A DNA stretch of 63,986 nt, the filler included, from Catajapyx aquilonaris (Eukaryota), in NCBI GenBank assembly GCA_000934665.2. It is 3 parts of 3 records of this genome, joined end to end, with 100 filler letters (N's around TTAATTAATTAA, not from the genome) between each part and the next. Parts side by side here need not be neighbours in the genome. Positions count along the whole stretch, not along the records: positions 1 to 21,335 come from JYFJ02006079.1; 2 more parts are not named here. One strand, written 5' to 3'. Within the stretch, counting starts at the first letter, position 1. Every line of letters starts with the position of its first letter. Shown here in pieces: positions 4,871 to 47,584 of this stretch. Under the pieces are notes generated by a model that made no database searches, was not told where the DNA came from, and worked only from the letters and a program-made list of their open reading frames with translations. The position numbers and the translations under genes were made by a program.

Positions 4871-6882
4871 CCGCTTCCTCCGAACCTGAGGGGCTTCTCT
4901 GAACTCACAACATTCAATTCGCACCCAAATTAATCCTCTAATTAATCACTGTTAATAAGCTAACTATTTTTAAACCTGTTGTAATGTACATGTAATTAGT
5001 ATGCAGTGGTGTAATATAAGTAGAGTGTAAGTATTGCCAGCCGCCACTTTCGTCCGTATCGTGTCGCTACGATCGCCTCTTTTTTTTTCATTAGCGTAAT
5101 TAATTATTTTTTTTCCCCTCCCTCCCTCCCCCCCTCTCATTACGGCACACCCAGGCAGGCAGGGTCCCCCAGCAGAGCCGTTCCTTTTTCGAGTCCGCAT
5201 CCCTCGGGAGAACTAGGAGCGGTCGGCAGCCGTAGGGGGAAACACTCCGCATGGCCTAAAGAAGATTCCTCTGGTGAGAAACACACACACAAGAAAATCA
5301 CACACAGGAAAATCGAACGTGGGACACTTTAATTTGAAGTTTGGCGCCACTAAAATTTTGTGCGTTAAAAATTTGGCATTTTAACATTTTTTTGAGGAAG
5401 TGAAAGTGAATGTTCCTTTTTTTATACGTGTTGGGGGTTGGACCGTTACTTGCTGTAATTAGGTTACGCAGAGGCCGCAGTACGTAACGGCCAGCACATG
5501 TGGAACATTATTGGAACAATTGCGGTACCGGTACACTGAAAAACTGAAATTTGAATTGCGGTGCACCGAAACATATTGGAATTAAGTGCACCAGTTGTTG
5601 GCTTGTCAGATATTACCGGTAATTAATAACTATGCCCTGCGCACATACTTGGTACAATGATAATGAGCTTGACCCACTGTGCATGGATTATAATTAATAT
5701 AAATTAATATGTAGGCCGTTGCACCAAATATGATCAGCAGTATTGATTGAACTTGTACTTAATAATTTCCCCGCAATTAGTGGTACTGAGACTTGCGGCT
5801 GGTTATATTGCAAGGACACAGGGTAATTAGACTTTGTGATTTGGGCTATAAAATGCCTTGTGGTGTTTGCTATATATGGACAGGGTTTTATCATTTCCAA
5901 CTGTAAATGTGTTTACTAGGGTATGTTTCGAAGTGGCTTTTCTTAATTAGTGTATTGTGCAATCAGTGGTATAATTAACCGCAATTGATACGAAATATTG
6001 ATTGCAAAAGTAGAATATGTGCTGGCCGGTGCAACTCTGAATTTATTTTTCCTGCGTAATACGTTAGCGTTTGTTCATGTAACGGCAGAGATGTACACAC
6101 AGCTGGACCATGTCGGCATGTACGACTTCATTGCATGCGTACAATTATGCATTCAACATGAAGCGCACGTTATGATATTTACACCGATGCAGATCGGAGT
6201 TGGCTTCCAATATTGTTATGCAAAATAGTACAGCTGTTTTGATCTCTGATGTTATTGCCCCATATCTTGATTTCATATTCCGCTTACGTGTAATAAACAT
6301 TGTTGTAATTACCAGTCTTTAAAAATCAGTTCGCAACTCTGATCGAAGCTGTAAGGCCATTGAAATACTAATTGGTTTTTTAAATACGAAATTAATTTCC
6401 CCAGGTCATACCAGTAGTAAACATTGTTGTAATTTCCGTTCTTTAAAAGTAAGTTCGCTAGTTGTAAGATCGCATGGTGTACAATGTAAGCGTCAGTGGT
6501 ACTGAAATAGTGATTGCGATTTTTGATAAAAATTACTTCCCTCAGGTCGTACCAGTAATAAATATTAACTGTGGTCAGTATTTGCAAGGTTACTTTGCAT
6601 AACTAGTTTTTGTTTGTGTTTTTGGCTTGAAATAATGGATTTTACATGCTATTTTTTTTCTCTCTCTTTCTCTTTCTCTCACTCAGCCTGCTCAACTTGG
6701 CCACCTGCCACGACTTTTTTGGGGGAAGAGAGAAGACCTTGCTGTGACACTAGTGCAAAAATAAATCCCAGTCCACACTCCCCTACCCTTGGAAAGTTCA
6801 GTCCCCACTGCCCCACATCAATACCCAACAACGCTAAAACAGCAACAAGAAGAAGTAGTAACATACAAAAACACATTTAAAA

Positions 6883-9800
6883 ATGCATCGTATGAGGACA
6901 GCTGTGACCAACTTCCTTCCCTTGGTACCGCTGGTTCCGCAGTCAGCCCCGCGCAAGTTCGCGACCTGGCTGCTGAAGGCAAACCCTCCGAGGGCCAGTT
7001 CGGCAGTGCTGACCACCGGGAGTGTGAGAAAATACAATGCTCCGGTTGCCGCCGACCCTTTCCTCAATGGCAGCTCCTCTACGTACGTCGAGGAGATGTA
7101 CAATTCGTGGCTGGCCGACCCTAAGAGCGTGCATGCCGTGAGTAACCTTAAGACTTTAGTGGCACCGACACGTGCGATATTTATGTTGCTGCATCGCAAT
7201 CAAGAAATTTGGCGATTGCACATATCTACAGAGTTTACCTTGCTGCATTGCAATCGAGAAATTCAACAATAAATTAGTTGCCGATGCGATTGGGCTGCAC
7301 AAATAGGATAAATCACAGCTGATGAAACTTCCTGCCGATTTTTTTACCAACTTATCTCTTTTACGGCCATTTGCGATTCAATTTAATCAGTAGTTAGAGT
7401 CGTACTCGATGGCCTTTTAAAAGTCCGGTATCAATACAAGACTATTGTGAAGGATGGCTTCCTCCCATTGATCCGGAGGTGAAATATTTATAGATAGAAT
7501 GGCAGGGTTGCCGTTTGGGAGACTGGGTTACGTAATAGATCATCATCAGTACCGTTTTTCTGGATGGCAGAATCCAGTACGTCAATTTGGTGATTCAGTG
7601 CCCCGAATCTTGCATAAGAGCTGACAACATTGCGTGTGCTAAACATTGGTAGTAATTTCGCTACCGGCGGTTGTAATCTTGTAACATGGAGAGGACCCAG
7701 ATTGCGGATAAATTTCCCTTGAGAGCGTTATCACTGATTGTGCTTCCACGTTTACATAGCACATGTTACAACTGTCTCGAACTGTCAACCTTGGATGCGG
7801 TACTGCCAGTTGAGATGATTGCCGTACCCAAGGATGACCTTGTAAGGTGTCATAAAAGACATATATTGTTTTCTGTGAGCTGAATTAAGTGCCTGGAGGC
7901 GTAGAGATAGAAAGGAAAAGGCCTCCCAACTTTCATCTCCCTCTTGGCTTGGTTTATTGCTCTCCATCTAGGTCACTGGGTTTTCGAAAATCACCGCCAC
8001 ACGTCTGGGGGTTAGGTAATGCAATGGAGGGCAGGTAAAAATTCTGGAGGGCGTGGTGGGAAGTGCAATTAGGAAACATGCGAGGCATGCGATGCATACC
8101 CTTGGAAAATAAAGGTCAGAATATTTCACATCGCAAGAGCAATCTTGAAATATTTGCAGCTGATGAGGTCTTTGACTCTAATGATGTATGCACCTGCTGC
8201 AGTGACAGTGCATAAGACAATTGCGGTAACGAGCCCAGTGTGACGCAGTTGACCCCTAAAAATGCACACCGAAGCATTCGACATGAAAGTGGTGGCACAC
8301 CTGGTGCAAAGGGCAGCTTCTATTATAACCTCTGGGGCTTGCATGTATCTTTATTCATGGCATGTTGCGACATTCAAGGATGTATGGCCCTCTCCGCACA
8401 CAAGTTCAGCCCATATGACGTACGAAGGGCGTTCATCTTGCGGGTAGGATTGCACACCCGTGGATATTCATGCGCTCACATGTTGCCGCGTGTAGATATG
8501 TTACGGAGATGGAAAAACACATGCGAACTCAAACACTTGAGCATAACAATAATGTCATCGCTGTAAAATTAAAAACCTGCTGTGTGGTGAAATTACAACT
8601 TTTAAGGAAGCTGAAAATATCGTTTAATTTTAAAGGTACATAGATTAACTCATGATCTATGTGGTACCTTTAAAATTAAATCATTATGACTTCTACGTGG
8701 TGCCTTTCAAATTAAACGATATGGACTTAAATCTACGTACCTTTTAAATTAAACAGGTTTTTTAGGCCTCCTGGAGAGTTGTCATTTCACCACAGCTGGT
8801 TTTTATTTTACAGCGACTATCTTCAAAAAGATATGTTGGGAATGCCATTTTATTACATTACAAAGCATGTAATAACGCAATTGCTGAACAAATAGGTTAT
8901 TATGTGCATTCGCTTCCAAGCACCTAGTTCTTAAGAACATTGTTGGCACGTTGCCTGAATTTTAAATAGCTTCTTCCAAACAGTTGGCAAGGGATTGTTG
9001 AGTTCCGGATGTGCCAAATAATAGGTGCCGAGGAAGGATCTGGACCGCCTTTTTTTTCTTCTTCTTTCAACGCACGTGATGTACGTCATAATATGCTGCA
9101 ATGTGTGGTGTGATGGAGCACATTCATGGCACACATTGCTGATATGATTAGATCGACAATGATAACTTAAAGTGTGCGGAGGAGTCCCCATAAATTGTTA
9201 GGGGGGGCGGTCACCCTTATTCGAAGGTCAAGTTTTCTTCCTGTCTTCCTTTTGAGCAAGTTGCGCATGAGAACTTTCATGTCAGATTTTCAAAGTCATG
9301 CGATGGGATTGACTAGACGAACTGGGGGATTGCTTGGAGGGGGAAAGTCCGCCTGTATCTGGCGTATCCCGGACCCATTAATGGTTTTTTCGATGTCTGG
9401 ATGCTCGACACCGAAACAATGATAACACGACCCTTTCAAGGCGGATGTGTCTCATCTGGCCGAGTGTAAATATACACTTAGTGGATTTCCCCATACACAA
9501 TCGTAGTAAATCGCCTTGTTTTATCTAACGGCTTATACGTTTTATCGTCTGATGCCCAGAAATTTCTAGTTATAATTTTCCTTATGATAGGCCATAAAAC
9601 AATGACCCCATTGTGGTTGAGTCAATCGGATGATATTGTTTACTGTACCAGGTCACCTTTACATGGATGTTAATTTTGTAAACAAACATGCAAATGCGGA
9701 CTATACACTCCTGATGTTTATTAGGTTGGCGAATAACTTGTTAAGCAAGTTTAGTAGGCAAACATGATGGCTTAGCAAATACTTATAGACTTGCTTTAAG

Positions 9801-12800
9801 TGAACTTTGCTGAATTCGATTGATTAGATGCGGATGTGCATAGAGTGTTAATAAGTGCCTTATTTGCTTACGATTCATTTTCGTTATGACGTGAAATTTT
9901 GTCCTGTGAAGGAGTTGCACCCAGACATGGTGCATATAACCTTTTTATGTTTTCCGAGTGAGAAGCGTACGAACTGCATTAATTAAGACGGGGGGGAAAG
10001 ACACTTTCCGGTGGTTTTCCCAAAGAGCTCACAAAACTGCTTTATCCGGTTTGTCGACCTGAAAGTTGCTTTCCCTACTAACGAGCCCCAATAATACGTG
10101 GATTTATTCACAGAATGGTTTATATGCTGTCAGGAGTAAAGTCCAACGTTAACGAACAAAATTACTTGGCCCCTAATTACTAATATATTTCTACATAGGT
10201 ATATGTTAATATACTCGTACAAGTCTCATAAATATTACAATGTGTTATTTCTTCTAAGTAGTGGGACTTGCTGTCATAATGGTCATAATGCAGTCCAAGA
10301 TGTGTTGAAGTTTAGAGAGAAGTGGGTACAGTAATTTACAGCTTTTTCCCTCCAAAAATCACATGCGAAAGTACGCTAAGAACGTTTTTACCCTGCTAAA
10401 ATTAGCTTACATACCTGTGCATCGTATAATCAGTCAAATAAGGTAATTAGTGTTCTTGTTAACTGGCAATTTGTCACTACTTGATTGGTCTGATTCCATC
10501 TTGTTTTCCTTTTCAAGTCCTGGGATTCATACTTCCGCAACACAGCAGCTGGGAAGTCCTCAGCCGAGTCCTACCAGCGGCCACCCTCGCTGGCCCTGCC
10601 TGGACGGAATGAAGTTCCCATCACTTCCCTCATCCCAGCGATGGGAGGAATGTCTGCCTTGGGGTCAGGTCACATCGACGAGAAGGTCATTGACGACCAT
10701 TTGGCCGTGCAGGCAATCATACGCTCGTACCAGGTAAGGGCTCTTCGAGAGCTGCCGAGGAGAGTGACGAAATGGAAGCGTTGATTTCAAGTTGTATGCA
10801 AAAAACAAGATATTATACAGAGCAATCACCTCCCAGGGTTAAGCACTTTTTAAAATAGATTCCAGGAGATATTTTTTTGTGTCATGTAGTTGGGTAAGTA
10901 AAAAAGTTCTGTGGAGCTTGAATGGTATTCGTGATTCAGTGGTTGTGTACAGTAGGATTTGTTAGGTTTGTGCCATGTTCTATATAAATTGTTGTGTCAG
11001 CACAATGGGAAGTCGAGTTATCTTCGGATTGGGAGAATATGCAGTTAATATTGTAAGAACAATAGGAAGGATTAAAATAAACGTGACATAGCGATCCCAG
11101 AGGGTCCTAATGTGCAGGATTAACTTTAATATTTGTGACAATGATTTGAATTTAGGCTGGATTTTACGTAGTAATGCTTTTTAGTTTAGATTTAAGTTAA
11201 TTTGGTTTTTACAATCTATGCAGATTCTTCAATTTTTCTCCCCCATATGATGCACTTCAAGCAGGGAGGAAATATTGCGATATTTTTATGATTCAAGAAT
11301 TCTGTTGTGTGGAACCGTATTGTTGGCGATTGAATTAAAAGGGCTTAAGTTTGTCAAACAAACCCTTCTAAGGACAAGGGACAAATCCGGGGAGTGTGTA
11401 GCACAAGTGTGGATTTTTTTTTCTTCAAATGCAGTGATCTTTTATACTTATGCATATGCATTGCGGCACACAAGTTGAATCATTGTCATTCATGACGTTT
11501 AATAATGCCACGTTTTGTACTAGTAACACTGTTGCCATCCTAACGAAGTTCTAATTGAATAACCTATTTGTCGATTTCATTAGCCATAAATTGCTCCTGT
11601 GCCGCTGCATAATTATGTACGAGAGATTTGCTGATTTGGGAGTGTTCTTTTTGTGTTTGGGTAGACCTGTTTGAAGTGCCGTGTAAAAAAAATGTTAAGC
11701 ACGTGAGGGATCAGGATCACTTTCAAAGAGCAAACGAGGGATTTCCGAACCGTTCTAAGCTTCCATTTTTTGCATGGCTATAATTTTTAACAATGGACAT
11801 AATTTTCCACTAGGGGATTGAAATGTTTTTTATTATGCTCATGAATCTTGATGACTCATGATGGCTGCTTTTCTCCCTTCCCATTTTATTGGAAAAAATA
11901 GTTTCATCTTGATTTTATATCATCTCTGTTGTGGTGTCTTTGCATGTTGATGTACACACTTTTGGCAAGAGTTGTGCATCACTTCTTTTTTAAAAAAAAT
12001 TACGGTGTTAATATCAGCTGGCTGCATTCGAAAAAAACTTGAACGGCTTCGGCTAAATTCTCTTTGGCCTGTTGCACCATCTTTTTACGTAATGATACAA
12101 TTAAGATGGTTTGTCCCATTAAGTTTCATTGGTTCGTTATTCATGCTCGTGATAACTGTTACTGGTCGCATTTGTCTCGAAATATATTCATTTTGTAATA
12201 TTAACGATGTGGTTCATGCTCATCCTTTCCACTATTACGATTCATGTATAAGAAGGTAACTTATGAAGTTATGATTCACTTGGCAATACTAACTGTAGTA
12301 CGTTTTCATCCATTCACTGTTACGACTCATGCATAAGAAGGTAATGTGAAAGTCAAGGGCATTAAAAAGTACCAGTGCTAAGTTACTTGTACGAAGCAAA
12401 TGTAATCTGAATGACGGCTCTCATTTTAAAAATATTACGAATACATGTAACTTAACGGTTTGTTACGGTCGAAAATGATTAATTTATGAAAATGAATAGT
12501 ATTTTTAAAGACCGATACAGTTATCCGCATGGATTGCTTGAGGCGACTGCAGCCTGTACCTACAGCTTATACCCACCCTTATAGTCTGTTTAAGTAAGCA
12601 GTTCAGAAATATTCAGAGAAACGAAAGACCCCCCCCAAAAAAAAGAAAGTTCCGTGTACACATTGTGCGTGCCTCATGCAGGCTCGAGGCCACCACGTTG
12701 CTGCCCTTGACCCGCTACTGATCACGTACGCTGACCTGCACGAGACCTTCTACGAACGCAGCGGGACTCCCCCCGAATTGGTAGTGAGGAACTACATGCT

Positions 12801-15800
12801 TGGTAAGGGGCTGATCGAGATACCCAGAATCTCCTCAAACCCCTCCGATGAAGGTAACCCTGTCCTACTCCTCACCTTTCCTTGCTCAAGTAAAACATTA
12901 AGGCCCCCGTTGCACCGCTCCAGGTATATCAAAAGCAGTGCGTTGCTCCTTGTTAGGCCGTGTGTACATGCGAGCATTTTGATGAGCAATGTGCATCGCT
13001 GAGTGATGAAATCGAGTGTTATGTTCGCTCCGAATAATATTGAAACCAGTCTGATGAAACGAATTGCTCACATGTAAACGCGAGCCTTATTCATTGTTAA
13101 GTGTCAACAATTTATGACAAGAAAATATGGCTTTTGCGTCCTGCAAGCAGTGCAACGTGGTCTTACTTTTCATTTACCATGATTTACCCTCTTTGTCATA
13201 CCATTACCCTGCATAAAATTGCGGTCAGATCCTCTTTTCAACATCGGCATTAGCACAAAATTTATTTTAGCCTCTTCTGGCATAACCTGCATGTGGTTAC
13301 GAGCATTTTCAGACGGTGAAACCGACTACGGTAGAACCCCGATTATCCAACCTCGGATTATCCTCCTCCCCCTCGGTGTATCTGACCATCTCGCTCCAGC
13401 AGTAAATCAATATTTTCTCATCAAATACTGTAATGTTGGCCTTATAAGCATTTATTTTGTATTGTCTTACAATGCGGAAAACTAACGACAATCTGACGTC
13501 ATCATTTTGATCTCATGCAACAATAGGAGTCAACAATGCTCTTTTTGTTGACACTGTTCGCTCATATTGTTGTGTGACGATGACGTCAGATCGTCGTTTC
13601 GCTTTCCGCACTGTAGTTAAATTTTAAGCAGTAGAGTGTGTACCTAAAAGATAAATGCTTCACTTTTTCTTAGAAAACCATGATATTGTACATGATTTCA
13701 TGCTGTTAATTTGTTGCTTTTGCTCTTCGGATTATTATCGGTCCTTTTTTGTTATCCGACTCATAAGTCGGGGTTTTACTGTATTTAAATTTCCGGATGA
13801 TTTGTTGAGAAGCGGATCTGCCTCGTACTCTTCTAGATACTGTTAAGGCATAGTTTAGGGCATGTCATTTTCTATGTTTTTGCCGCCGCTTCTTGGCCTA
13901 TTTCCGACACACTCGCAAAACGAGGTAAGGCGCATGTGCATGCTTCTTTTTTTTTCTCTCTCAGTTCCTCAATGTGCTTTTTGGTTGTGGCTGTTTTTTT
14001 GTTTTGTTTTCTTGTCCGTCGCTTTCTGGATTACTTCCTCAGCAGAAACGGAAAAAAAATAAATTTAACAGGCAGAGATTAGAATCGGAGGTGATTGAGA
14101 TGTATACGAAATGATCTGGAGAGAATGGCCACCAGCACTTGTAAATAACGGTTTTTTGCGGACTTGTTGCCTTATTACCCCCCACCTTTTTCCACACTGA
14201 CGATCTCCCGTGGCACCTCCTCCCCCTGCATTACTTGCAGATTCGAGGGCATCACATAGCAGACTTGGATCCTCTGGGCATTCAAGCTGCTGACTTGGAC
14301 TCCAGAACTCCTCCCGAATTGCTTTATGATTATTATTCCTTTGGTAAGGGTCTACACGTCCTGCCAATCTCTTTTTCTCTCTGTACTTCTCTCTCTCTTT
14401 TTAAGTTCACTTCTTCGTTGTTCCGACGTCTCGCTGTGAATTTGTTGTCAGAATACTGCAGGCCCTGATTTGATAATAATTTTCCCTCTTTAAATTTCTT
14501 CCGATTTCGATTTCTGTCCAGTGTGTGATGCCTTTATTTCTGATGTGTTGTGTACAGTTTCTCCTTTTTGGTGTTTGGATGCGATTGGGTTACGCTCTTG
14601 TTGCGTTGGTTCCAGTGTTGCCAAATATTTTCAGACGGGGGCGGAGGACAAGTAGGTAGTTTCTCGCTAGTTCCTTTCATCCATATGTGTTTTGGTTCCA
14701 TAGTGACCTGTTTTAACTCTACACAACCCATCTCTTCGTTCGCCTTTTTAATTGTCTTTAGTTTCGTAACATCACATATGTTGCCACTATTTTTTGTGCT
14801 AAGTTGGTGACACATGCTTTGAGGGCTATTTTTCGTGCATGTATTAGGCTAATTTGTTAAATGCCAGGTAGGTTGTGTAAGCTGCTTTGTTGTTTTCGAT
14901 GCGGAAACAACAAACGACATCCTCGTTCACATTTCATATTTGTATGAAAAGTTGCATTTAATATTCACATTAATTATAACCGGATTCTCTTCGCAACTGG
15001 TGCGAACTGCTAATATATGTACCGCCGCACTGCAAAATTATAGCGAAATCGAAGTTTGTTGTTTCTTGCATTGCCATGGTTAACGTTTGAGTTCTTCCTC
15101 TACACTATCATAAAATCATCTTATCTCACAATAATTATAGAGCAACATCTGTTGCTAAAAGCTTGTAACTTTTGAGTCACCGATTCCGTAGAATGTACGA
15201 ACCTTCTAACTTATATGTCTCTTTGTTTTTGCCTTGTGGGGGCCGTCGATAATTAATGGGGGTGTGGGGATGTGAAACGCAGAGGAGAAGGACATGGAGC
15301 GGGTTTTCAAGCTTCCGTCGACCACCTACATTGGCGGGAAGGAGAAGAACCTGACCCTGCGCGAGATCCTTCGTCGCCTGGAGAACGCCTACTGCCGACA
15401 CATTGGTGTGGAGTTCATGTTCATCAACTCCTTGGAGCAGTGCAACTGGATCCGCCAAAAGATCGAGACACCCGGCATAATGGAGTTTGATGTGGAGCAG
15501 AAGCGGCTGTTGCTTGCTCGTCTCACGAGGGCCACCGGATTCGAGGCCTTCCTGGCCCGCAAGTGGTCCTCTGAGAAGCGGTTTGGTCTGGAAGGCTGCG
15601 AGATCCTGATCCCGGCTATGAAGCAGGTGATTGACAAGTCGACAGACCTCGGGGTGGAGTCCATCGTAATGGGGATGCCTCACAGAGGAAGGCTTAACGT
15701 GCTGGCCAACGTATGCCGCAAGCCCCTCGAGCAGATGTTCACCCAATTCTCGGCGCTGGAGGCTGAGGACGACGTGAGTTGGAATTGTTCTCAAATCGCT

Positions 15801-18703
15801 TGGCATATGTCAGATTAGGCTTTAATTTTGTTGTGACTTACGCACTCTCTCTCTCTCTCGTTGCAAAATGTAGGGCTCTGGTGATGTGAAGTACCATTTG
15901 GGCACTTACATCGAGCGTCTGAATCGTGTGACGAACAAGAACATCCGACTGGCTGTCGTGGCTAATCCTTCCCATTTGGAGGCCTGTGATCCAGTGGTGC
16001 AGGGGAAGACCAGGGCGGAACAGTTCTACCGGGGCGATTCGGAGGGAAAGAAGGTGATGTCCATGCTTCTGCACGGAGACGCCGCTTTCTCCGGCCAAGG
16101 GGTGGTCTTCGAGACCTTCCATCTGTCGGACCTGCCCGACTACACCACACGGGGAACTGTGCATATTGTGGTTAACAACCAAATTGGTTTCACAACTGAT
16201 CCCAGGCACTCGAGATCGTCTGCGTACTGCACAGGTATGGTAGCCTCGTGTCTGAAGGTTTGCAAATGTAACCGCAACTGTTGTCCTCCCCAGACGTGGC
16301 TCGAGTGGTGAATGCACCAATTTTCCACGTGAATGCGGATGACGCCGAGGCTGTGATGCACGTGTGTAACGTGGCTGCTGAGTGGAGGTCCACTTTCCAC
16401 AAGGACGTCATCATTGATCTGGTAATTGTTTGGTTCTGCATGTGTATGGATTAAAGCCACATTTACATGTGAGCGATTAGATCGGCAATGTTGCAACGAT
16501 CTCATTGCCGATTGTTTGGGGTAAAAATGTAGTGTTGACACGATTGTTACGTTCGCTCAGCTATGTCATCGCTGACCAAATTGCTCACATGTAAACGGGG
16601 CTTAAAACTTTCATTTGTACCTAAGAAGGTCACGTTTTGTTTCCCAGGTGTGCTACCGGCGCAACGGTCACAATGAGATCGACGAGCCCATGTTCACCCA
16701 GCCACTCATGTACCGCAAGATCCGCCAGATGGAGCCAGGTCTGGAAAAGTACGCTGAGAAACTGATCAACGAGGGAGTGGTGACGCAGGATGAGGTGAAG
16801 GACGTGAAGGAGAAGTACGAGAAGATCTGCGAGGAGGCCTACAAGAACGCGGCCCAGCAGACCCACATCAAGTTCAAGGACTGGCTGGACTCTCCGTGGT
16901 CCGGATTCTTCGAGGGCAAGGATCCCCTGAAGGTCTCACCCACCGGAATCAAGGAGGACACTATGGTGCACATTGGGAAGCGTTTCTCGTCGCCGCCGCC
17001 TAACGCAGCCGAGTTCAAAATCCACAAGGGTAAGCACACGTAAGTGAAGTTGTGGGGCATGTGCATTGAGATTGTTTTTCGGCAGGTCTGATGCGTATTC
17101 TGAAGTCTCGCATGGAGATGGTGGATGCCCGTACTGTGGACTGGGCACTCGGAGAAGCCCTGGCATTCGGATCCCTGCTGAAGGACGGCATCCATGTGCG
17201 TCTGAGTGGACAGGACGTGGAAAGAGGGACATTCAGCCACAGGCATCACGTGCTCCACCACCAGGACGTGGACAAGGCAACCTACAGGCCTCTTTGCCAC
17301 CTCTACCCAGACCAGGCTCCGTACACCGTCTGCAACAGCTCCCTCTCTGAATTTGGAGTGCTCGGTTAGTACCTCGGAAGCGTGTGATTCGTATGGGAAC
17401 TGATCAACCGCCGCTTGCAGGTTTTGAACTGGGCTACTCCATGACGAATCCGAACGCTCTGGTCCTCTGGGAGGCTCAGTTCGGGGACTTCAACAACACG
17501 GCTCAGTGCATCATTGACCAGTTCATTTCATCCGGTCAGGCCAAGTGGGTCAGACAGTCAGGTCTCGTCATGCTGCTGCCTCACGGGATGGAAGGAATGG
17601 TTGGTGTCACCCTTAACAATTTTCCAGGCTCCGTTTTAATTTCACTTTCAATTTTGTAGGGTCCAGAGCACTCCAGCGCTCGTCTGGAGAGGTTCCTGCA
17701 GATGTCATCTGACGATCCCGATTACTTCCCACCGGAGAGTGCGGAATTTGCTGTCAGGCAACTGCATGATATCAATTGGATTGTAAGTCATTGACTATTA
17801 CAATGCGACTAACACATACAGCCATGTTTACATATGAGAGATTTGATCAGCAATGTGCTGCGATGAGCGATGCAAAATGCGATTGTTACTTTCGCCACAA
17901 ACAATTTGATTCACCGCTTGTTTGGGGCGAATAACGTTTTGCTCCCAAACAATTGATTTCATCGCTCATCCCTGCACATCACTTTTGAAACGCGGCCTAA
18001 AGGTTGTGATGTCATGTGTTATTCTGAAGCTATTGACACAGTTACTAGCTAACTTATTGCGTCATTGCAGGTGGCCAACTGCTCAACCCCAGGAAACTAC
18101 TTCCACATCATGCGCCGCCAGATCGCTCTCCCTTTCCGCAAGCCCTTGGTGCTGATGACCCCGAAATCGCTCCTTCGTCACCCGGAGGCCCGCTCCAGCT
18201 TCGATGAGATGGTCGAGGGCACCGAATTCCAGCGGTTGATCCCATCCACCCACACGAAGCCCGACAAGGTGAAGAAGGTGATATTCTGCTCCGGCCGCGT
18301 CTATTACGATATCAGGAAGGCGAGGACGGACCGCAAGTTGGAGGACGACATTGCCATCATGAGGCTTGAGCAGATCTGCCCCTTCCCATACGATCTGATC
18401 AAGCAGGAGGTGGCCAAGTACCCGGGAGCCAGGCTCCAGTGGGTGCAGGAGGAGCACAAGAACATGGGAGCCTGGAGCTACGTCCAGCCCAGGTTCCACA
18501 CATGCCTCAGCGGGGAGAGGCCTGTTTCGTAAGTCTGGAATTTTCATTCACAAATGACATGTGGGACATTACGTAGACGTGTTACGTTATGCAACCATTT
18601 CAGATATGCTGGACGAATGGCGGCTGCGTCTCCGGCAACCGGTAGCAAACATCTCCACCTGAGGGAGGTGCAGCAGATGCTGGATGACGCCATGGCCATC
18701 TGA
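6883..18703 (+). CDS. OGDH: 2-oxoglutarate dehydrogenase E1 component, mitochondrial (Nc73EF-like)
   Basis: Exons 6883-7137, 10518-10733, [12682-12802 or 14241-14343], 15283-15773, 15874-16234, 16294-16421, 16648-17029, 17086-17364, 17421-17599, 17660-17782, 18071-18528, 18604-18703, all GT-AG and phase-consistent. Motifs [40 protein letters not shown] (TPP), [29 protein letters not shown]. Confidence 0.97.
8559..8815. mobile_element. Palindromic MITE in OGDH intron
   Basis: cgctgtaaaattaaaaacc..tgtggtgaaat.acaact mirrored by agttgtcatttcaccacagc..ggtttttattttacagcg. Confidence 0.65.
12682..12802 (+). CDS. OGDH: OGDH alternative exon A ([40 protein letters not shown])
   Basis: cag|GCTCGA...CTTG|gtaagg; 121 nt, phase 0 in, phase 1 out; paralogous to exon B. 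Confidence 0.88.
13470..13613. mobile_element. Hairpin MITE with TA flanks between OGDH exons A and B
   Basis: TA|caatgcggaaaactaacgacaatctgacgtcatc ... gatgacgtcagatcgtcgtttcgctttccgcactg|TA. Confidence 0.7.
14241..14343 (+). CDS. OGDH: OGDH alternative exon B ([34 protein letters not shown])
   Basis: ttgcag|ATTCGA...TTTG|gtaagg; 103 nt, phase 0 in, phase 1 out. Confidence 0.92.
16455..16602. mobile_element. PIF/Harbinger-like MITE (related copies at 12956-13086 and ~17820-17997)
   Basis: TAA|agccacatttacatgtgagc ... gctcacatgtaaacggggct|TAA; termini and the gatc.gcaatgt core recur in two other OGDH introns. Confidence 0.7.
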
Positions 18704-21335
18704 ATTTAGCGGAGCAAGAACCACAATTTCACGGCCATTTGCACCTAGCCCCTCTCTAGCTCTTCGTGGCGATTTCAAATCAATCGTGCAGAGTAACGCA
18801 GATATCAAAGAAAGCAGCAAAGCGAATTATCTTTTTACGAGAGATGTCGCCAAGTATTTTTCTTAGGAGTTCTTTTTTTTTTTTTTTTTTGGTCACCCCT
18901 CCGATTCTATTAGTCGGCTACATTAAAATAACATCAAATCGATTCTGAGGTGAAACTTAATTGCTCTAGTTGTAAAGTAGATGTACAGAATATTTATATT
19001 CCCCTCTCTATCCCCCCAATTCCTCTTGTTTTACCCATCAATCTTTATTGTCCAGGGTTGACAGTTTACACAACTCTATTAAATCGGCAGTACTTAAAAT
19101 GTCACTTGCGCACTAATCACGGAACTTAAAAAGCTGTGCCTTTTTCTCTCTTCCTGTGTTTTTATTTATCCCAAGCTGTCAACCCGCAATTGTTGCAGTA
19201 TTGATCATGTAAAATGGCATAGTAAGTAAAAAAAAAACTGCACTAGTTAACAAAAAAGGAAAGAAACACGATGCTTATACCTGTTGAAAAATTCTTTTCG
19301 TCCCCAGTGATCCCAACTAGTTTCAATCAGGCCAATTAACCAGGAAAGTGGAAGAATATTGTTGATGAGAGATTATCCGGATTTTTATTTTCGTGAAGGA
19401 TTTAAAAGAAACTGAACTTGTGTGATGGAAGCACGACAGTAAAGTGTACTTGGTATTATAACCTGTGTTGATTATTTCCCCCCCCCCCTGGTTCCCTGCG
19501 CAATTTCGTATAACCGCACTTGGAAGGTTGTCACTTATTCCGTAGATGGGAAAGCGTATTTACCAAAATGCTTGGAGTAGCACGGAAAAGTGTGTATGAT
19601 GCATAATAGAGCGTATCACAAGGGGTCCTGATTACCACTGTGCAAAATAATATCGGAAGCAAAATTGATTTGTTGGTGTAGTTGTAAAAATATGGGTTTG
19701 AATTATTTTTTTTGTTTGAAATATTTTGCTCTCAAAAACATCTCCCGGGAGGACATTAATAATTACAGTTGTGTCACTGTCCCACATAATTAAGTAAAAG
19801 TGACATTTAATGCTCGTTGCAGTATGTGGCAACCCATCAAGAGTGGGGTACCCACATGACCATGAAAATTTAATTATCAGTTTTAGTGAGTAATTTGCGA
19901 CACTAGAAAATGGGAGTAATTTTACATAAATTTAGGTAAATAATTTCGAGGAAATTATTATTATTAATACTGGTACCATCAGCAACGGTCTCTAAGAAGA
20001 TTCTGTGATTTTGTTCACTGAAGAGAGTGTCTAATTAACCATAATTTAGTGCCATAAATGTAACATTTGTTACAGCTTAAATATCAGCGCTTTTACAAGT
20101 ACAGTGTGCACTCATTCCAACAAAAAAATATCAAAGTAAGATCCAATTTAGAAAAAAAAATGTCAGTATTTTCTCAAAACAAACGATTATGATCAGCTCC
20201 ATATATTTTTATGCCACAATATTATTCTTATTGTTTGCATTATAAGATTCTCTTCAATATGCCGTGTCCCCCTATAAAAATGGCCAACTGGCCAGCTAAT
20301 GGGGTAAAATAAATAAATAAATAAAAAACAAGAAGACTGATTATTTTTAACTAGCAATTCAATGTCACTGTCTTCTCTGAGTTAGCTAATTATTATGGGA
20401 GGCAGTCTTGCAGAGGAAAATGAGGTAATATTTTTGACCTCAATATATTTTTTATGATATTATACTTAGGCATTATATATTATATATTATATTTCACTTT
20501 GAGTATTTCATCCTGGAAAGCAACATGCTGTACATTCATTTTATTTGCTTTTTGGGATAGGATAGGGACGGAAGGAAGCGGCTGTGGCCTGTTTTTTATA
20601 CCATAGGAATTTTCATACCACGTGAATTTTTATACCACGGATATTTTTATGCCACGTGAATTTTTATAACAGGGAAATTTTTATACCACAATTTTTTTAA
20701 ATAACACATGAAAAGAAATCATAACAGGGTTTTTTTTTGTTTTTGGCACACGAATATTTTTTAAGAATATACTGAAACACAAATTATCACATTCTTTTAC
20801 TTATTAACACACTAACTAATAAGGCTTAAAAATGTAACCTAAATCAAATATTTTATGGTGATTGTTGAATTCTGTGGCTCCCTTTCTTTACAATAAGTAC
20901 ATGCTGGAGAGAGTGCCAGTATCGAAGTAGCGCAGTGGTCTAGTGGTTAAGACTCTCTCTTCGTAACCTGAAGGTTGAAGGATCGGATCCTGAAAGGAAG
21001 ACGTCGTTTCTTTTTATCGCTATGGACCTTTCCCGCTGTTACTTCATCTCTCATTTCATATTTATTTCTCTTTGAAGTGCATCTGGTAAATTTGCTAGAC
21101 CCTTCCAACACACACACACTCTCGTTGCACCAGAGCGTGGTTCTGAGGTAGCGCATCAGACTCTCAATCGGGAGATGTGGGTTCAAATCCCTTGTCTCCT
21201 TGGTTGAGAGTCAGAAAAAAAATTTTGCAGCCGACATCTCTGGCCAAGATGGCGACTGTTCCTTCGCAGTTTCCCCAACACTTCTTCAGAGGTGTCGGAG
21301 GAGCAGCGAAGAGGGGGGGGGGGAGGAGGGAGGGG

Positions 21336-21435
21336 NNNNNNNNNNNNNNNNNNNNNNNNNNNNNNNNNNNNNNNNNNNNTTAATTAATTAANNNNNNNNN
21401 NNNNNNNNNNNNNNNNNNNNNNNNNNNNNNNNNNN
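21336..21435. other. Assembly gap with TTAATTAATTAA spacer
   Basis: 44 N + TTAATTAATTAA + 44 N; identical construct at 42807-42906. Confidence 0.97.
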
Positions 21436-23582: not shown

Positions 23583-26150
23583 ATGTCCAGCGACTCGGTG
23601 CGAACGGTAGGCTACATTACCTTTGCACCCTAAGTTTTCTCTCTCTCGCCAGCCCTTTCACTCGCATCTTTTTCTCTTCGCATATTTAAATTGCCTTTTT
23701 TTTATATAATTTTTGGAAGAGGGCCTTCTACAATTTCCCTTCACATTCTTTTTGCAGCGTTATTGTGGAATGCCTTTCTTAATTTTTTTATATTAGAATG
23801 GGATTGGTCTTAATTTTTTGATCGCAAGTCACACTCGTAGTCTTCGTATTGATGTGTTTTTACATGGTGAGTCAGAAGTCCTTGCCCGACACTTGACCCA
23901 CTGGCAGTTTCAGTTTGTGGTTATATAATTCGTAATCTTGAAGCTGATAAGGTCAAATTCCGCTAGTAAAATGTGCAAGTCCTGCGGAGATTAACCATAC
24001 GGAAGGATAAAAATATCACGTCCATAATTTCATAGCCGAGCAGATTCATTTTTTCCGACGCCTAATGCTTGTTCATTAGTAGGCATGTAATTTATCGTTA
24101 AATTAACTTGGGAAAATACGTACCATGATTTTAAAAGGTGTCGCAAGAATTTTTGACTGGCCACTTGTATACACTGAGAGATTGAAAGGGTTGGATTTTT
24201 TTCTTAACTCTGCTTCCTGCATTATTTACCATGCTTATGTCTGGCTCCCTTGGCATAAGAAAGCATAATTAACCAATTAAGAAAATGCTGTGAGACACTT
24301 AATGATCACACACTTTTCATTTAGAGGACTGCTACGCTGTGTATTGACGACTGTTGTTCTCAGTTTTCCAGCCTGGAGACTCCAGGATACGTTGGTTTTG
24401 CGAATCTCCCGAATCAAGTTCATCGCAAGTCGGTCAAGAAAGGATTTGAGTTCACCCTCATGGTTGTTGGTACGTTAATTTTTCAGGCGGAAAGTAGCGT
24501 TGTTATTGGCCCTTTGAATGTTTTTTTTTTTTCCAGGTGAGTCTGGACTAGGAAAGTCGACGTTGGTGAACAGCCTTTTCCTGACTGATTTGTATCCCGA
24601 GAGAGTCATTCCTGAGGCAAAAGGTTAGTTTCGTTGAAGCTTCGTTATCACATGGCCAGTATCGCAAAAACTTTCTGCAGTTGACATGTTTTTTGTCCAT
24701 ATTTTTGTATTGAGTAGATGGATGGTAATTGTTCCAAAAAAATTTCAGATAAGGTGAAGCAAACTGTGAAGTTAGATGCTTCAACAGTTGAAATTGAAGA
24801 GAGGGGAGTGAAGCTGCGATTGACGGTGGTCGACACTCCAGGGTTTGGGGATGCTATTGACAACGTCGACTGGTGAGTATCGCTGTAAACTTATTCGCAG
24901 CATGGTCGTATGTATATTGGTTTAACTTACGAACGTCACCTGCCGTTAATTTCCGACAGTTTCAAGTCCATAATAACATACATAGATGAGCAGTTTGAGC
25001 GTTTTCTTCGCGACGAGAGTGGACTCAACCGAAGAAACATTGTGGACAATCGAGTCCATTGTTGCTTCTACTTCATATCGCCATTTGGCCATGGGTAAGC
25101 GTTTTAAAAATTATTTGCACTTTTACAACAGTTGACCAATCTCGGATCGTAAAAACATTTCCTGAACGTACAGGTTGAAGCCACTGGACGTGGAGTTCAT
25201 GAAGCAGCTTCACAACAAAGTCAACATTGTCCCCGTGATAGCCAAGGCGGACGTGCTTACCAAAAAGGAAATGGCCAAGCTGAAGAAGAGGGTGAGCATG
25301 CCATACATTCACTTCATAGAACGTAACGGTAACTAAAAGTATTGGACGAATGTACCTATTCATGTCTCGATGCTTCTCCGAGGAAATGCAGACCTGTTCG
25401 GCTGCCAAGAATTGTTCAGGATTTAATTTCCAAACATGGATGTACACAAGTAATTCCGGCCCAGTAAGTCTCACAGCATCTCTCGTGTTAACCGCAGATC
25501 CTGGAGGAAATAGAGGAGCATGGAATCAAGATCTACCCGTTACCCGATTGCGATAGCGACGAGGATGAGGATTACAAGGAGCAGGTCCGCCAGCTGAAGG
25601 AGGCCGTCCCTTTCGCGGTGTGCGGTGCCAACACGGTGATTGAGGTCAAGGGCAGGAAGGTTCGAGGCCGGTTGTACCCTTGGGGAGTCGTGGAGGTTGA
25701 GAATCCAGAGCACTGCGACTTCATCAAGCTCCGGACCATGCTTATGTGAGTATCTGTGAATCAAATCGAGCTACTTGCAATATCTAAGCATAATTTTCTC
25801 CGTACAGAACCCACATGCAGGATCTACAGGAAGTAACGCAAGAAGTTCACTACGAGAGCTTCCGATCAGAGCGACTGGCCAAAGGGGTTCCGCCCGTCTA
25901 CAGAAAGTCTTCCGCACAGTAAGCCTATTATTTCTGTGGCTTTTGCCTCAGTTTGATGCTAATTCGATCTTAATTTTGCAGAAGCCAGCCACCGGCGGCC
26001 ACGGAAGGGTCCGAGAAGGACCGGATCCTGCAAGAGAAGGAAGCCGAGCTGCGTCGCATGCAGGAGATGCTGGCCAAGATGCAGGCGCAGATGCAACAGC
26101 AGGGCGGCCCAGGAAAGCCGCCTCCGCCACCACAACCGAACCAACATTAA
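23583..26150 (+). CDS. Sep1: Septin, SEPT2 group (Drosophila Sep1-like)
   Basis: Exons 23583-23606 (candidate first exon), 24364-24469, 24537-24623, 24749-24872, 24960-25094, 25174-25291, 25498-25745, 25808-25918, 25982-26150. Motifs [43 protein letters not shown] (P-loop), DTPGFG, AKAD, GRLYPWG, C-terminal [13 protein letters not shown] coil. Confidence 0.95.
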
Positions 26151-28597: not shown

Positions 28598-30213
28598 ATG
28601 GCGGTTCACATGATGGTAAGAAAACGTGTTTTTTCTTTGCAAAATTATTTTTGCACTCATTTGGCGCGATTTCTGTTCGTGAAAGGCACTTAATTTTACT
28701 TGCCCACAATTTGCGAACTCATATTTAAAATAATTGTATTGTACTGTTTGTTAATTTGCAAACCATCTCAAATGTAAAAACATTTTTCGCAAACTCTCCT
28801 TGACATGTCCATGTACTTTATTTATTATTATATTATTATATTATATTTATGTACATTAATTATTATATTATATTCATGTATATTATATTATATTATTGTA
28901 TATTAATTATATTATATTATTGTATATTAATTATATTATATTATTGTATATTAATTATATTATATTATTGTATATTTTTTATATTATTAATCTTACATAA
29001 TTATTATACTATTATTTCTTAAACTTCCTGCAATTTTACAGAGACATTTCTTGAGCGCAACGGCAATTTTGAAGCGATTCCACTCGACAAGCAGGCCTTA
29101 CAAATGGAGCAAAAACAGGTTCAAATATGGTTCAGCATCTGAAGCAGAAGCTGCGAGTGACCAGTCTGAAGCGGCTGATTCAGCACCGAGTGATGACCAC
29201 TTCACACTTCCTTCAGGTCGGCTCAGGGCAGGTGAGAGGAGTTACTTCAGCTCAAAGTTTGTCCAGAAGTACAAGTCAAAGCGACAAGGGCAGTTTGGTA
29301 TGGAAGACAGGGATGATTACATGCAACCGAAGAGCGGAGTAACCGGCGAAATACTTTACGGTGTACATCCCGTGGCTGCTGCGTTGTTAGCAAAAAGACG
29401 GCAGATCCACTGCATTTATTACAAGCCATCGGACAGTCCCTCGCTGAATCAGATCCTGGAAATGGGCTCCAGTAGTGGTAGCCTAATGCGTCAGGTGGAT
29501 CGGAGGGACTTGGAGAGATTCACCGGGAAGAGCATGGTGCATCAGGGCGTGTGCGCTGATGTGTCCGCGCTTCCTTCCGAGTCCGTGTCTAATTGCGACG
29601 TAAACGGGGTCGACATACTTATGGTTCTGGCGGGAATACACGATCCGATGAACTTCGGTGCGGCGTTGAGGTCCGCACTTTTCTTTGGAATCCGGAACAT
29701 TCTGATTTCCAAAACGGGAAGGTATTGAGCTTTTACAATGCTGTACGACCTGTATTATTATAGTACGATTCATTCGCTAGCTGTCGGATGTCTCCAGTCG
29801 TCAGCAAGGCCAGCTCGGGTGCTCTGGAGTTTATGGACGTATGGCATGCGGATGATGTTCCTGCCTTTCTGCAAAGGATGAAAGGATGTGGATGGGACGT
29901 CCTGGGAACTGCTGCTAGCGACGGAAACGTGTCATCAATCAACATTTGGGATTATCAGCCGAGCTCAAATTCGCCATTGGTGCTCGTAATCGGTGAGCAA
30001 CTTGCAATCTAAAGCGTTGAACACTAAATAATTTCATTCAACATTACAGGCAATGAAGGAAAGGGATTGGATGCAAACATTCTCGATTGCTGCACTGCGA
30101 TACTGACAATCCCACCCCACGGCACATTACCTGCCGGTATGGATTCGCTAAATGTTTCCGCCGCAGTCTCAATTTTCCTTCATTCGCTCCGTACGAAAAA
30201 GACCTCCCTTTAA
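28598..30213 (+). CDS. MRM1: Mitochondrial rRNA methyltransferase 1 (SpoU/TrmH family)
   Basis: Exons 28598-28615, 29042-29721, 29781-29992, 30050-30213. Motifs EILYGVHPV, HQGVC, GIHDPMNFGAALRSA, SPVVSKASSGALE, LVIGNEGKGL, DSLNVSAA. Confidence 0.92.
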
Positions 30214-32750: not shown

Positions 32751-33764
32751 TCATACCCCGTTATCAGCCATCGGCTCTTTAGGGGGGACGTTTGTTTTGC
32801 CTGGAACTCTTTGCTTTTCATTTTACTGCGCTCTTTGGGATAGGATAGGGACGGAAGGAAGCGGCTGTGGCCTATTAATTACGGAAGCAACTCCGGAATT
32901 TTCCTGGAAGGACCGTGGGAAACCACAGAAAACCATGGTCAGAGTTGCCGGCCCCGGGATTCGAACCCAGGACCTCCCGATTAGCAGTCGGACGCCTTAT
33001 CCACTATGCCAACCTGCTTCGGTTGTTATAAAATTATATGAATAAATTATTGGTTATAAAATTAGTGTTAATAAATTATTGGTTGTAAAATTAGTGTTAA
33101 CAAATTATGGGTTATAAAATTAGAATCAATAAATTTTTGACTGTAAAATATTTAAATTAGTGTTATAAAATTATTAATTTATCGGTTATTAAATTAGTAA
33201 TAAATTATTAGTTATTAACTAATACATTGTTATTATTATGTTAGTTATTAAATTATTTTCAGTGCGTTGGACATTATTGCATCCGAACCCGTTACCTCCG
33301 ATCTCCTCAAGCTGCCTTTGAAGCTCGGCCACCATGAGCTTGAGGTAGTCGTAACTGGCGCAGGCCAACGCCTTCATCCAGCTCTCCATGGCCTCCTGGG
33401 AATCCGCTCCCATCACGTAGACCCGATTGGCCATCCCGTGAAACACGATCTTGAAGGAGAACTGCTCCTCGTCCTCCGCCAGCTCTGGAACCCCCCCCAA
33501 AGGAAAGGATATTAGGAGCCTGTCTGTCCCACACGCCCTCCGTCCGATGCGCAACCGACCTATGGTGCATCCCTCCAGGATGATGACCCCGACCGGCTCC
33601 TTGTCCCCCTTCCTCTCGAAGTAGAAGAGCAGGTTCCCCTTGAGGACGAACCACCTCTTCTGGTAGCTCTTGTTGACCTCCCCCCGCTTCATCAGCCAGC
33701 CGTCCTTGTCCACTGGTGTGGCCGAGGTGGCAAACGCAGCCAGGTTCTTCTCGTTGATCTTCAT
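32032..33764 (-). CDS. PHETA1: Sesquipedalian / IPIP27 PH-domain endocytic adaptor
   Basis: Exons 33764-33560, 33484-33296, 32291-32032. MKINEKNL..GWLMKRGEVNKSYQKRWFVLKGNLLFYF PH domain, WMKALACASYDYL, C-terminal F&H motif FQELHREMG. Invertebrate co-ortholog of PHETA1/2. Confidence 0.9.
32520..33200. repeat. ~29-bp AT-rich minisatellite in the sesquipedalian intron, split by a SINE
   Basis: Repeated aaaattatatgaataaattatt(t/g)gttat units on both sides of the SINE. Confidence 0.8.
32705..33023 (-). mobile_element. tRNA-derived SINE, family A, with (ATT)n tail
   Basis: Minus strand starts accgaagcaggTTGGCATAGTGG..GGTTCGAATCC (A and B boxes). Homologs at 58066-58415, 45573-45984 and a fragment at ~20545-20590. 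Confidence 0.88.
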
Positions 33765-35076
33765 CCTTTGCTGCTCCCTGCTCCGTACCCTACCAAAATC
33801 ATTATCAGTACATTGCTCAACCGCAGCAGTGTCCACTAGACGCTGCACCGTGTGTGTGTCGGTTGAGGGTCAGTACTTCCTCCCGTTGTTGTGTCCTCCA
33901 AGGCGGTGTGGCATCTGCACAATGCTCGTTACGCTCTTTTGCAGCCAGATAATGAGGCTTTTCAATTAGGAAGGAAACAATGCAATAAAAGAAAGAAACA
34001 AAAAAATAATAAAATTTACCACACCTCTTTCTGGTATCGACTGTCAGCTATCGACATCTGTTTTTATAAACAGTTGCGATCGCACGATCGATAGCATCAT
34101 GGTTAAAGCAGCTTAATTGGGAATAACTGTTACTATCAAATGTGGGGGGCGATTTTAAAGCAACTTTTGTGATGCTATATTCATAATTAGGCGCTGAACA
34201 GCTTCTAATTGAAGTGCCCGAGACTACGGCGCGGTGTTTCAACTAATTGCTGATCATATTTGGCTAGTTTGTGCTCATAAGCTAATGTGATGTAGCAGCT
34301 AGTTTTGCTGTAAGCTGCTTTCTTGTTGTTGTTTACTTATTGTTGTCACGTGCTTCGTTTGGGCTCCATATTTTTCATTATCGGCTTCGATTTTTATCAA
34401 TATTTTAATGCATGGTGATTGGTGGGTATTTATCGGGTTGGATTAACTCCAGTTGCGTGGTAACCATTGCGGTTTTACAGGAGATATTGTGGTAAGAAGA
34501 GTTGGATGCGTACAGCAGTTGTAATTAATTGGTAATTAGTATTTAAATTAATAAGTGCTTACATAATAAATGAGCATGTCACGTGTCAGCAACTTAATTA
34601 TTTTTGTTAATTATCGGTACAGTACTGTAAAATTGTATAAAATGTTCCATACAAACTTAGTGTTCTTAGCATATAGAACAAGATGAAGTTTCTACAGTAT
34701 ATATCTATAAAATTAATAAATAACATATTTTCAAAATCTATGTATGTAAGACAAAGTTTCTTCATTTTTTTTTGTTTGCCCACGGCAACGGGATTTTGTT
34801 GGTATAATTACCATGAAAACGGGCTGTGCGAAGAACGGGCTCCGCTGCTAGTATCTAAATAGATAAATGAGTTCTATTAATGATAGAAAGTCTGATAATA
34901 GAGCACAGTGTGTAGCAACATATTCATAATCAGATAAGCTAATCAGAGGTTTCAGGTTTTCCCAGGAGCCGCAATAACACTTCAGATTAAATCTGGGTTT
35001 TCCGGATAATAAGGTGCGTATATAAGCGACTGGAGACGATACGTAATTTTGCAGTACACCAGTACAAAGCCTGACG

Positions 35077-42806: not shown

Positions 42807-42906
42807 NNNNNNNNNNNNNNNNNNNNNNNNNNNNNNNNNNNNNNNNNNNNTTAATTAATTAANNNNNNNNNNNNNNNNNNNNNNNNNNNNNNNNNNNNNN
42901 NNNNNN
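42807..42906. other. Assembly gap with TTAATTAATTAA spacer
   Basis: 44 N + TTAATTAATTAA + 44 N. Confidence 0.97.
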
Positions 42907-47257: not shown

Positions 47258-47584
47258 TTTATTTTATTTATTGTACCCCGTGTTCTATAGTGGGGTGGTA
47301 CACCACCATTTTTCCTCAATTTTCTAAGTTAACTTCACTCCGGTGTAGGGAAACAAGGACATTGGGTAAGGATAGGGATTTTTGGGGAGGGAACATGGGT
47401 GCAAGTGCATTGTCTGAAAAGGGGTCATGTATTGTTCCCCAGGAGGTTAGGTTGCCAGACACCTCCTTGGTGCAGGTTAGAGACCCTCCTGACGCAGGTG
47501 GAAGGAACTCCCAGGTGGGGATCGAACCTGGGACCTTCCACTCAGCAAGCCGAGATGTTACCATCTCGGCCACCACACCTCCCC
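47258..47584 (-). mobile_element. tRNA-derived SINE inserted in the LINE RT
   Basis: Minus head GGTGTGGTGGCCGAGATGG..GGTTCGATCCC, A-rich tail; TSD tgtgaccc(t/c)ctta at 47245-47257 and 47585-47597. Confidence 0.85.

Follow-up and report, generated by a model that had tools for sequence, protein, structure and literature searches.

Does the exchange of two short neighbouring exons switch the calcium response of an arthropod 2-oxoglutarate dehydrogenase, as it does in mammals, or does it serve another kind of control? The question is raised by the arthropod OGDH gene (Nc73EF type) that occupies positions 6883-18703 on the + strand of a 63,986-nucleotide stretch of DNA from Catajapyx aquilonaris (GCA_000934665.2), the whole of which is referred to here as the window. 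Two homologous exons, A and B, lie in this gene between exon 2 and the constitutive exon that opens at 15283. In the Krebs cycle OGDH acts as a rate-controlling step, and its response to calcium in mammals hinges on which exon is chosen here; at that very place arthropods retain an alternative of equal age and strong conservation. The reading favoured here, with a probability of about 0.8, is that exons A and B form a conserved mutually exclusive pair, the exchange of which would tune the allosteric control of the enzyme and would not be a simple mammal-like Ca2+ on/off switch.

Two homologous exons and the frame rule

The window consists of eukaryotic DNA, in which exons are short and introns of the GT..AG type. 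Translations of five exons matched the OGDH domain families in Pfam, among which PF16078 (2-oxogl_dehyd_N, E 6.5e-13), PF00676 (E1_dh, on three exons with a best E of 7.9e-21) and PF16870 (OxoGdeHyase_C, E 1.3e-42) scored above the cut-offs, and PF02779 (Transket_pyr) reached 23.2 bits on the partial exon tested, just under the 27-bit cut-off. The large exons showed 79-84% identity to insect OGDH proteins over 755-913 aligned residues. A close homologue, isoform X3 of the damselfly Ischnura elegans, reached 1456 bits when compared with human OGDH (8i0k) and 633 bits with DHTKD1 (6u3j). The domain set is that of OGDH, and the close similarity points to OGDH itself instead of the paralogue DHTKD1.

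Exon 2 ends in phase 0 with ..IRSYQ, and the exon at 15283 opens with the two bases that complete a GAG codon. Between them, exon A (121 nt) and exon B (103 nt) each begin in phase 0, end in phase 1 and comprise 3n+1 bases. The two exons share a ..tgcag acceptor and a TTG/gtaaggg donor (the slash marks the splice site), the full flanks being ...catgcag and gtaagggg for exon A and ...cttgcag and gtaagggt for exon B. The encoded segment opens with xRGHHxAxLDPL directly after the invariant ..IRSYQ, and the two peptides agree in 20 of 37 positions (BLASTP E = 4e-10), their alignment having a single 6-residue gap due to the six extra residues of exon A. Common blocks are found at the DNA level as well, for instance ACTCC[C/T]CCCGAATTG. 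The motif in exon B reads A-A-D-L-D (QAADLDS) and that in exon A Y-A-D-L-H (YADLHE). Searching both peptides against the whole window by tblastn returned only two significant copies, namely A and B themselves; no third copy was found in the window, where the next match had E = 0.044 at 47568.

In-silico splicing of exon A alone or of exon B alone left the frame open through the next exon. Inclusion of both led to a stop 17 codons into B, and omission of both to a stop after 23 codons. A and B are adjacent homologous exons with frame-enforcing phases, that is, a tandem-duplication pair. Each mRNA would carry either exon A or exon B, with the choice made at the level of the splice sites, and transcripts with both or neither would stop early, be non-productive and presumably be removed by nonsense-mediated decay. 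The outcome would be two enzyme forms that differ only in a segment of 34 or 40 residues where the ordered E1 core begins, exon B giving the canonical form, which aligns colinearly with human exon 4b, and exon A an old arthropod alternative with a signature of its own.

Most of this anatomy had been anticipated in the initial annotation, which described two paralogous exons of these lengths, phases and motifs, with six more residues in A, and held that taking both or neither breaks the frame; all of these details are borne out. It had also placed the pair at the position of the alternative exons of mammalian OGDH and regarded insect Nc73EF-type genes as alternatively spliced here; the first point is supported by the colinear alignment with the human chain 8i0k_A and the shared length of 103 nt, and the second by the A and B isoforms in many insect gene models, as described below.

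Transcript evidence was obtained by a search of public runs with exon A alone as query (seven sampled words), which returned five runs. Four of them, all in the form of contigs, were compared with positions 6800-18800 of the window. Run X2 comes from the same species with its library type unrecorded, X1 is a library of RNA made from a relative, and X4 is from a relative that is mostly less than 90% alike. A 3587-nt contig of X2 had no differences from the window over the listed pieces and was spliced at every intron, with the joints 7137>10518, 10733>12682 and 12802>15283 followed by further introns, exon A being included and exon B skipped. X2 was taken as RNA-derived solely because this contig is spliced. 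The joints 10733>12682 and 12802>15283 were likewise present in X4, while X1 showed 12802>15283 and a loose end past 10733 that reads as the start of an A-type exon; X3 gave one uninformative 36-base piece on the opposite strand. Since X2 and X4 both join it to exon 2 on one side and to the 15283 exon on the other, exon A is a real spliced exon used in this species, and the first of the refuting outcomes named in the initial annotation, a lack of reads spliced into exon A, does not apply.

The Leu codon (CTG) at 12718-12720, in the ..DPLLI.. of exon A, reads GGG (Gly) in the two related species (runs X1 and X4), as in most insects (..DPLGI..).

Exon B appeared in one X1 contig only (14236-14351, three differences in 116 bases), and as this contig overruns the exon ends by 5 and 8 bases, it looks more like unspliced RNA or DNA than like mRNA. 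Exon B might be a conserved-looking relic in this species, with A effectively constitutive and no regulated choice, in line with the spliced contigs of X2, X4 and X1, which all contain A, and with the X2 contig joining across B. However, the frame of exon B is intact, its AG and GT sites are perfect and its donor matches that of A. The acceptor pyrimidine tract of B (0.70) is better than that of A (0.57), and, judged from the sequence, a CTGAC branch-like site lies at -41. In addition, the B copy of the X1 relative shows only those few differences where the other exons of X1 differ by about 10-15%, and B is the form present in most insect gene models. A relic is therefore considered highly improbable, and exon B is probably also used in this species.

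Several points weigh against the favoured reading of a functional, mutually exclusive pair. No spliced exon-B transcript was found for this species, and a B joint was absent among the joints listed (15 of 27). Exon B was not covered by any listed X2 contig, which says nothing beyond one contig joining across B. The runs were picked with exon A words and contain A by choice, contig assemblies lose rare isoforms, the nonsense-mediated decay of transcripts with both or neither exon is deduced from stop codons, and no arthropod study of a functional difference between A and B was present in the literature searched. The selection by exon A and the loss of minor forms count against a relic as well, and because of them an A:B ratio is not derivable and disuse of B is not shown.

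Arthropod homologues of the two exon types

A search with exon A retrieved eight proteins, including OGDH of the centipede Strigamia maritima (77% identity over the exon) and isoform X2 of Ischnura elegans. The search with exon B, in which the query was lengthened by six intronic codons, retrieved 45 proteins, nearly all insect OGDH and including Ischnura isoform X3. Isoforms X2 and X3 have 1030 and 1024 residues, the same 6-residue difference as between A and B of the window. Isoform pairs were read from the clusters, drawn at 90% identity, to which ten insect OGDH proteins belong, and isoforms of both types from one gene were found in Periplaneta, Zootermopsis, Lycorma, Gryllus, Halyomorpha, Homalodisca, Cloeon, Hetaerina, Anabrus and Anopheles. 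The groups with both isoforms are cockroach, termite, planthopper, crickets, stink bug, leafhopper, mayfly and damselflies, and in mosquitoes the A type is more diverged.

A profile built from 11 A exons matched 195 proteins at E <= 0.01. Among the best 120 of these 195 matches, the named ones were all from insects or the centipede, bar one fragment filed under a bacterium, and the insects matched by the profile include bees, ants, wasps, moths, thrips and whitefly. The exception, P0143, is a 157-residue fragment that carries an insect A-type OGDH exon and is filed under 'bacterium LRH843', most likely an insect contamination of the bacterial assembly.

In a maximum-likelihood tree of 35 exon peptides, the A type (20) and the B type (15) were divided by a branch with 100/100 support, with both types present in 12 species, the window included; the alignment has 40 columns only, and branching within either group is unresolved. 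Across 11 diverse A sequences, Y-A-D-L-H is nearly invariant and the late V, R and M are invariant, which gives a signature from centipede to insects of YADLH ... VVRxYML (PPE.VVRxYML). Exon B is nearly identical across insect orders. Since A and B types occur across insect orders and A in a centipede, the exon duplication is older than the insect orders sampled, and the A type was already present in the common ancestor of centipedes and insects. The strong conservation of each type suggests that each form has a function of its own.

Further back, the human OGDH exon duplication was dated to Bilateria via equivalent exons of the Pacific oyster (PMC8373072). OGDH is not among the events for which that paper gives Drosophila orthologues, and Lottia and Amphimedon are given as invertebrates with the motif but without the duplication (PMC7969005). 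Compared by eye, exon A of the window bears no specific likeness to human exon 4a outside the RGHH..LDPL half. Exon A could have arisen by a duplication in the arthropod lineage, independent of vertebrate 4a, and have brought a regulatory property unrelated to Ca2+, with A as the main form in this species. Taken as a whole this proposal is possible, though doubtful. If it were true, duplication of this OGDH exon, with mutual exclusion of the copies, would have happened on two occasions, and A may, for example, change the response to adenine nucleotides or NADH, or the binding of a partner.

The insect models show further variation around the pair. An optional cassette of ~21 residues (e.g. ..GKRPSTTYSQHLQQKVASMMEQ..) follows directly after the A or the B exon, in either combination, in many insects; the stored proteins bearing it are P0024, P0043, P0044, P0019, P0029, P0073, P0105, P0122 and P0141. 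It recalls the 15-residue 'Insert' exon of mammalian OGDH. With eight cassette-bearing segments as tblastn queries, no homologue was found in 14344-15282 of the window. A candidate micro-exon at about 14635-14655 (cag/ACGGGGG...) was rejected, as its 18-nt form lacks a GT donor and its 21-nt form keeps the frame but is unsupported.

Gene models of Lepidoptera (moths and butterflies; P0162, P0164 and P0171) contain three different tandem RGH..DPL exons, which suggests a three-member alternative cluster fused by annotators. Both an A-type and a B-type exon occur in one protein in P0012, P0013, P0111, P0112, P0120, P0131 and P0142, which come from Ranatra, Periplaneta, Gryllus and Rhodnius, plus one MetaClust record (P0131). 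In view of the frame rule, these fused models are probably annotation or read-through errors. For annotation this means that several deposited models join both exons where correct ones should have A or B.

Calcium and the effect of the exchange

The initial annotation went further and proposed a splice switch of the mammalian kind, in which B would encode a Ca2+-activated E1 and A one insensitive to Ca2+, possibly with a division between muscle and other tissue. The pair indeed lies at the same position as the vertebrate pair, the 4b member of which holds the Ca2+-binding DADLD (PMC7969005). Exon B retains A-D-L-D with the central Asp, which PMC7969005 regards as the most ancient element of the motif, and exon A has both the first and the last acidic positions replaced (Y-A-D-L-H). 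Nevertheless, DADLD itself is present in neither exon A nor exon B. The first position of B is Ala, and the change from Asp to Ala there abolishes the Ca2+ sensitivity of human E1 (PMC7969005), in agreement with the loss of Ca2+ sensitivity upon Asp substitutions in DADLD (PMC9177970).

The same position was followed through the stored proteins after classing them by exon. The 101 arthropod B-type segments, which include several isoforms per species and are not independent, have Ser in 100 cases, Ala in one and Asp in none; 15 further segments, for the most part fused gene models or models from moths in which three such exons stand in tandem, were left unclassified. The claim of a Ca2+-responsive B against a non-responsive A is not supported by this count or by the AADLD of the window. 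Moreover, McCormack and Denton reportedly observed in 1981 that the OGDH complex of insect flight muscle is not activated by Ca2+.

A literature search on Ca2+ regulation of insect OGDH returned nothing relevant, and neither PMC3396849 nor PMC11436768 touches on insects or on how the Ca2+ site is built. Several species are reported to have Ala at the first motif position, and insects often have SADLD, the effect of Ser being described as unknown (PMC7969005). Ser or Ala at this position could be compensated. Even so, a mammal-like on/off Ca2+ switch is judged unlikely from these points taken together. As none of these arthropod sequences has the vertebrate Ca2+ motif, the insect choice may have been kept for a non-mammalian reason or may act via a modified site.

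With the conserved pair itself retained as the favoured reading, its effect may be sought by analogy. The vertebrate segment carries Ca2+ site 1, and the allosteric response there changes the Km for 2-oxoglutarate. Because the vertebrate segment sets such a response, a change in allosteric regulation is the most likely effect of the choice between A and B. The swap would then alter how the enzyme reacts to the effectors by which its Km for 2-oxoglutarate is set, whichever ligand is involved.

Gene model, surroundings and comparison with known systems

The coordinates of the gene model are collected in Table 1.

Table 1. Features of the OGDH locus, in positions of the window
Feature	Position	Strand	Evidence and remarks
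OGDH exon 1	6883..7137	+	ATG at 6883, ends in phase 0; Pfam 2-oxogl_dehyd_N; X2 contig to 7137, joint 7137>10518
OGDH exon 2	10518..10733	+	Ends in phase 0, ..AIIRSYQ; donor for either alternative exon; joints 7137>10518 and 10733>12682 in X2 and X4
Alternative exon A	12682..12802	+	121 nt, 40 codons + 1 base, YADLH type; spliced in X2 (0 mismatches) and X4; 12802>15283 also in X1
Intron between the alternative exons	12803..14240	+	1438 nt; holds an inverted repeat
Alternative exon B	14241..14343	+	103 nt, 34 codons + 1 base; AADLD, canonical type; length equals human exon 4b
Next constitutive exon	15283..15773	+	Acceptor for either alternative exon; Pfam E1_dh; joint 12802>15283
Remaining OGDH exons to the stop codon, about 8	15874..18703	+	X2 contig joints; open reading frames; Pfam E1_dh/Transket_pyr/OxoGdeHyase_C; 79-84% identity to insect OGDH

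The inverted repeat inside the intron between A and B consists of 20-nt arms (13484-13503 and 13579-13598) that are complementary at 19 of 20 positions, lie 75 nt apart and beat 30 of 30 shuffles. Several repeat-like X2 contigs terminate in 13327-13614 with loose ends and unrelated flanks, at a depth of about 26, and the repeat at 13484-13598 looks like a small repeated or mobile element. Competing RNA pairing, known from exon clusters of Drosophila, was considered as a mechanism of exclusivity, with 10814-10833, just after exon 2, pairing with 14087-14106, before B, and looping out A. These two stretches are complementary at 17 of 20 positions and at least 17 was reached in 18 of 30 dinucleotide shuffles; the pairing is at chance level and was discarded.

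Elsewhere in the window, other open reading frames were recognized by eye from the list of frames, including a multi-C2H2 zinc-finger-like frame at 971-2599, a septin-like one at 24718-26150, an RNA methyltransferase-like one at 28991-30200, a PH-domain-like one at 33219-33869 on the - strand and a phospholipase B-like one at 35047-37300. Two pairs of 44-base N runs with similar flanks are located at 21336-21435 and 42807-42906, position 21336 being where the joining filler begins.

The vertebrate pair is well studied and its origin dated, and the insect pair is already contained in many deposited gene models. No paper describing the exon pair of insect Nc73EF/Ogdh was found in the literature search, and this exon choice is not discussed in PMC10323237 on Drosophila OGDH, so the insect biology of the pair appears to be unstudied. 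What the window contributes is a further species, with Ala opening the motif of its canonical exon and with transcripts that include A. The feature is real but ordinary, and a role as Ca2+ switch is unproven.

The closest known system is the exon pair 4a/4b of human OGDH, a mutually exclusive one in which 4b (S1) holds the DADLD essential for Ca2+ binding and 4a (LS1) yields a Ca2+-insensitive enzyme (PMC7969005, citing Armstrong 2014 and Denton 2016). Human 4a has 91 nt and 4b 103 nt, both 3n+1, and they lie 122 nt apart (PMC8373072, supplementary table). The B-type homologue is colinear with the human OGDH chain 8i0k_A, with SADLD placed over DADLD. Because of this alignment and the agreement of exon B with human 4b in length and phases, the two pairs are taken to occupy the same place. 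They have in common the gene, the exon position after ..YQ, the 3n+1 length of both members and the order of a non-canonical exon upstream and a canonical one downstream, the canonical exon being of equal length in human and window. In contrast, the canonical exon has AADLD in the window and DADLD in human, the alternative exon exceeds the canonical one in length in the window and falls short of it in human, and the intervening intron, with its repeat-like insert, is far from the 122 nt of the human gene.

This last difference bears on how exclusivity is brought about. In vertebrates it is enforced by distant branch points in the short intron, beside the upstream donor (PMC7969005). Such a steric mechanism is not expected in the window, since the intron has 1438 nt and the AG-free stretch before B measures only 103 nt, with an ordinary branch-like site at -41. 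The frame rule is the demonstrable basis of exclusivity that is left in the window.

The annotated insect isoforms (Ischnura elegans X2/X3, Periplaneta americana X2/X3 and Apis mellifera X4) share with the window the two exon types, the 6-residue difference and the flanks ..IRSYQ, exon, E.DM.RVFKLP. The window differs from them in the Ala of exon B, where Ser is the rule (100 of the 101 B segments), and in the ~21-residue cassette, which many insects have and which was undetected in the window. Its exon A keeps RGHH, like mayflies, damselflies and the centipede, whereas neopteran insects have RGHL. In the catalogue of tandem exon duplications, the OGDH pair is treated as an ancient, conserved and frame-enforced substitution event (PMC8373072).

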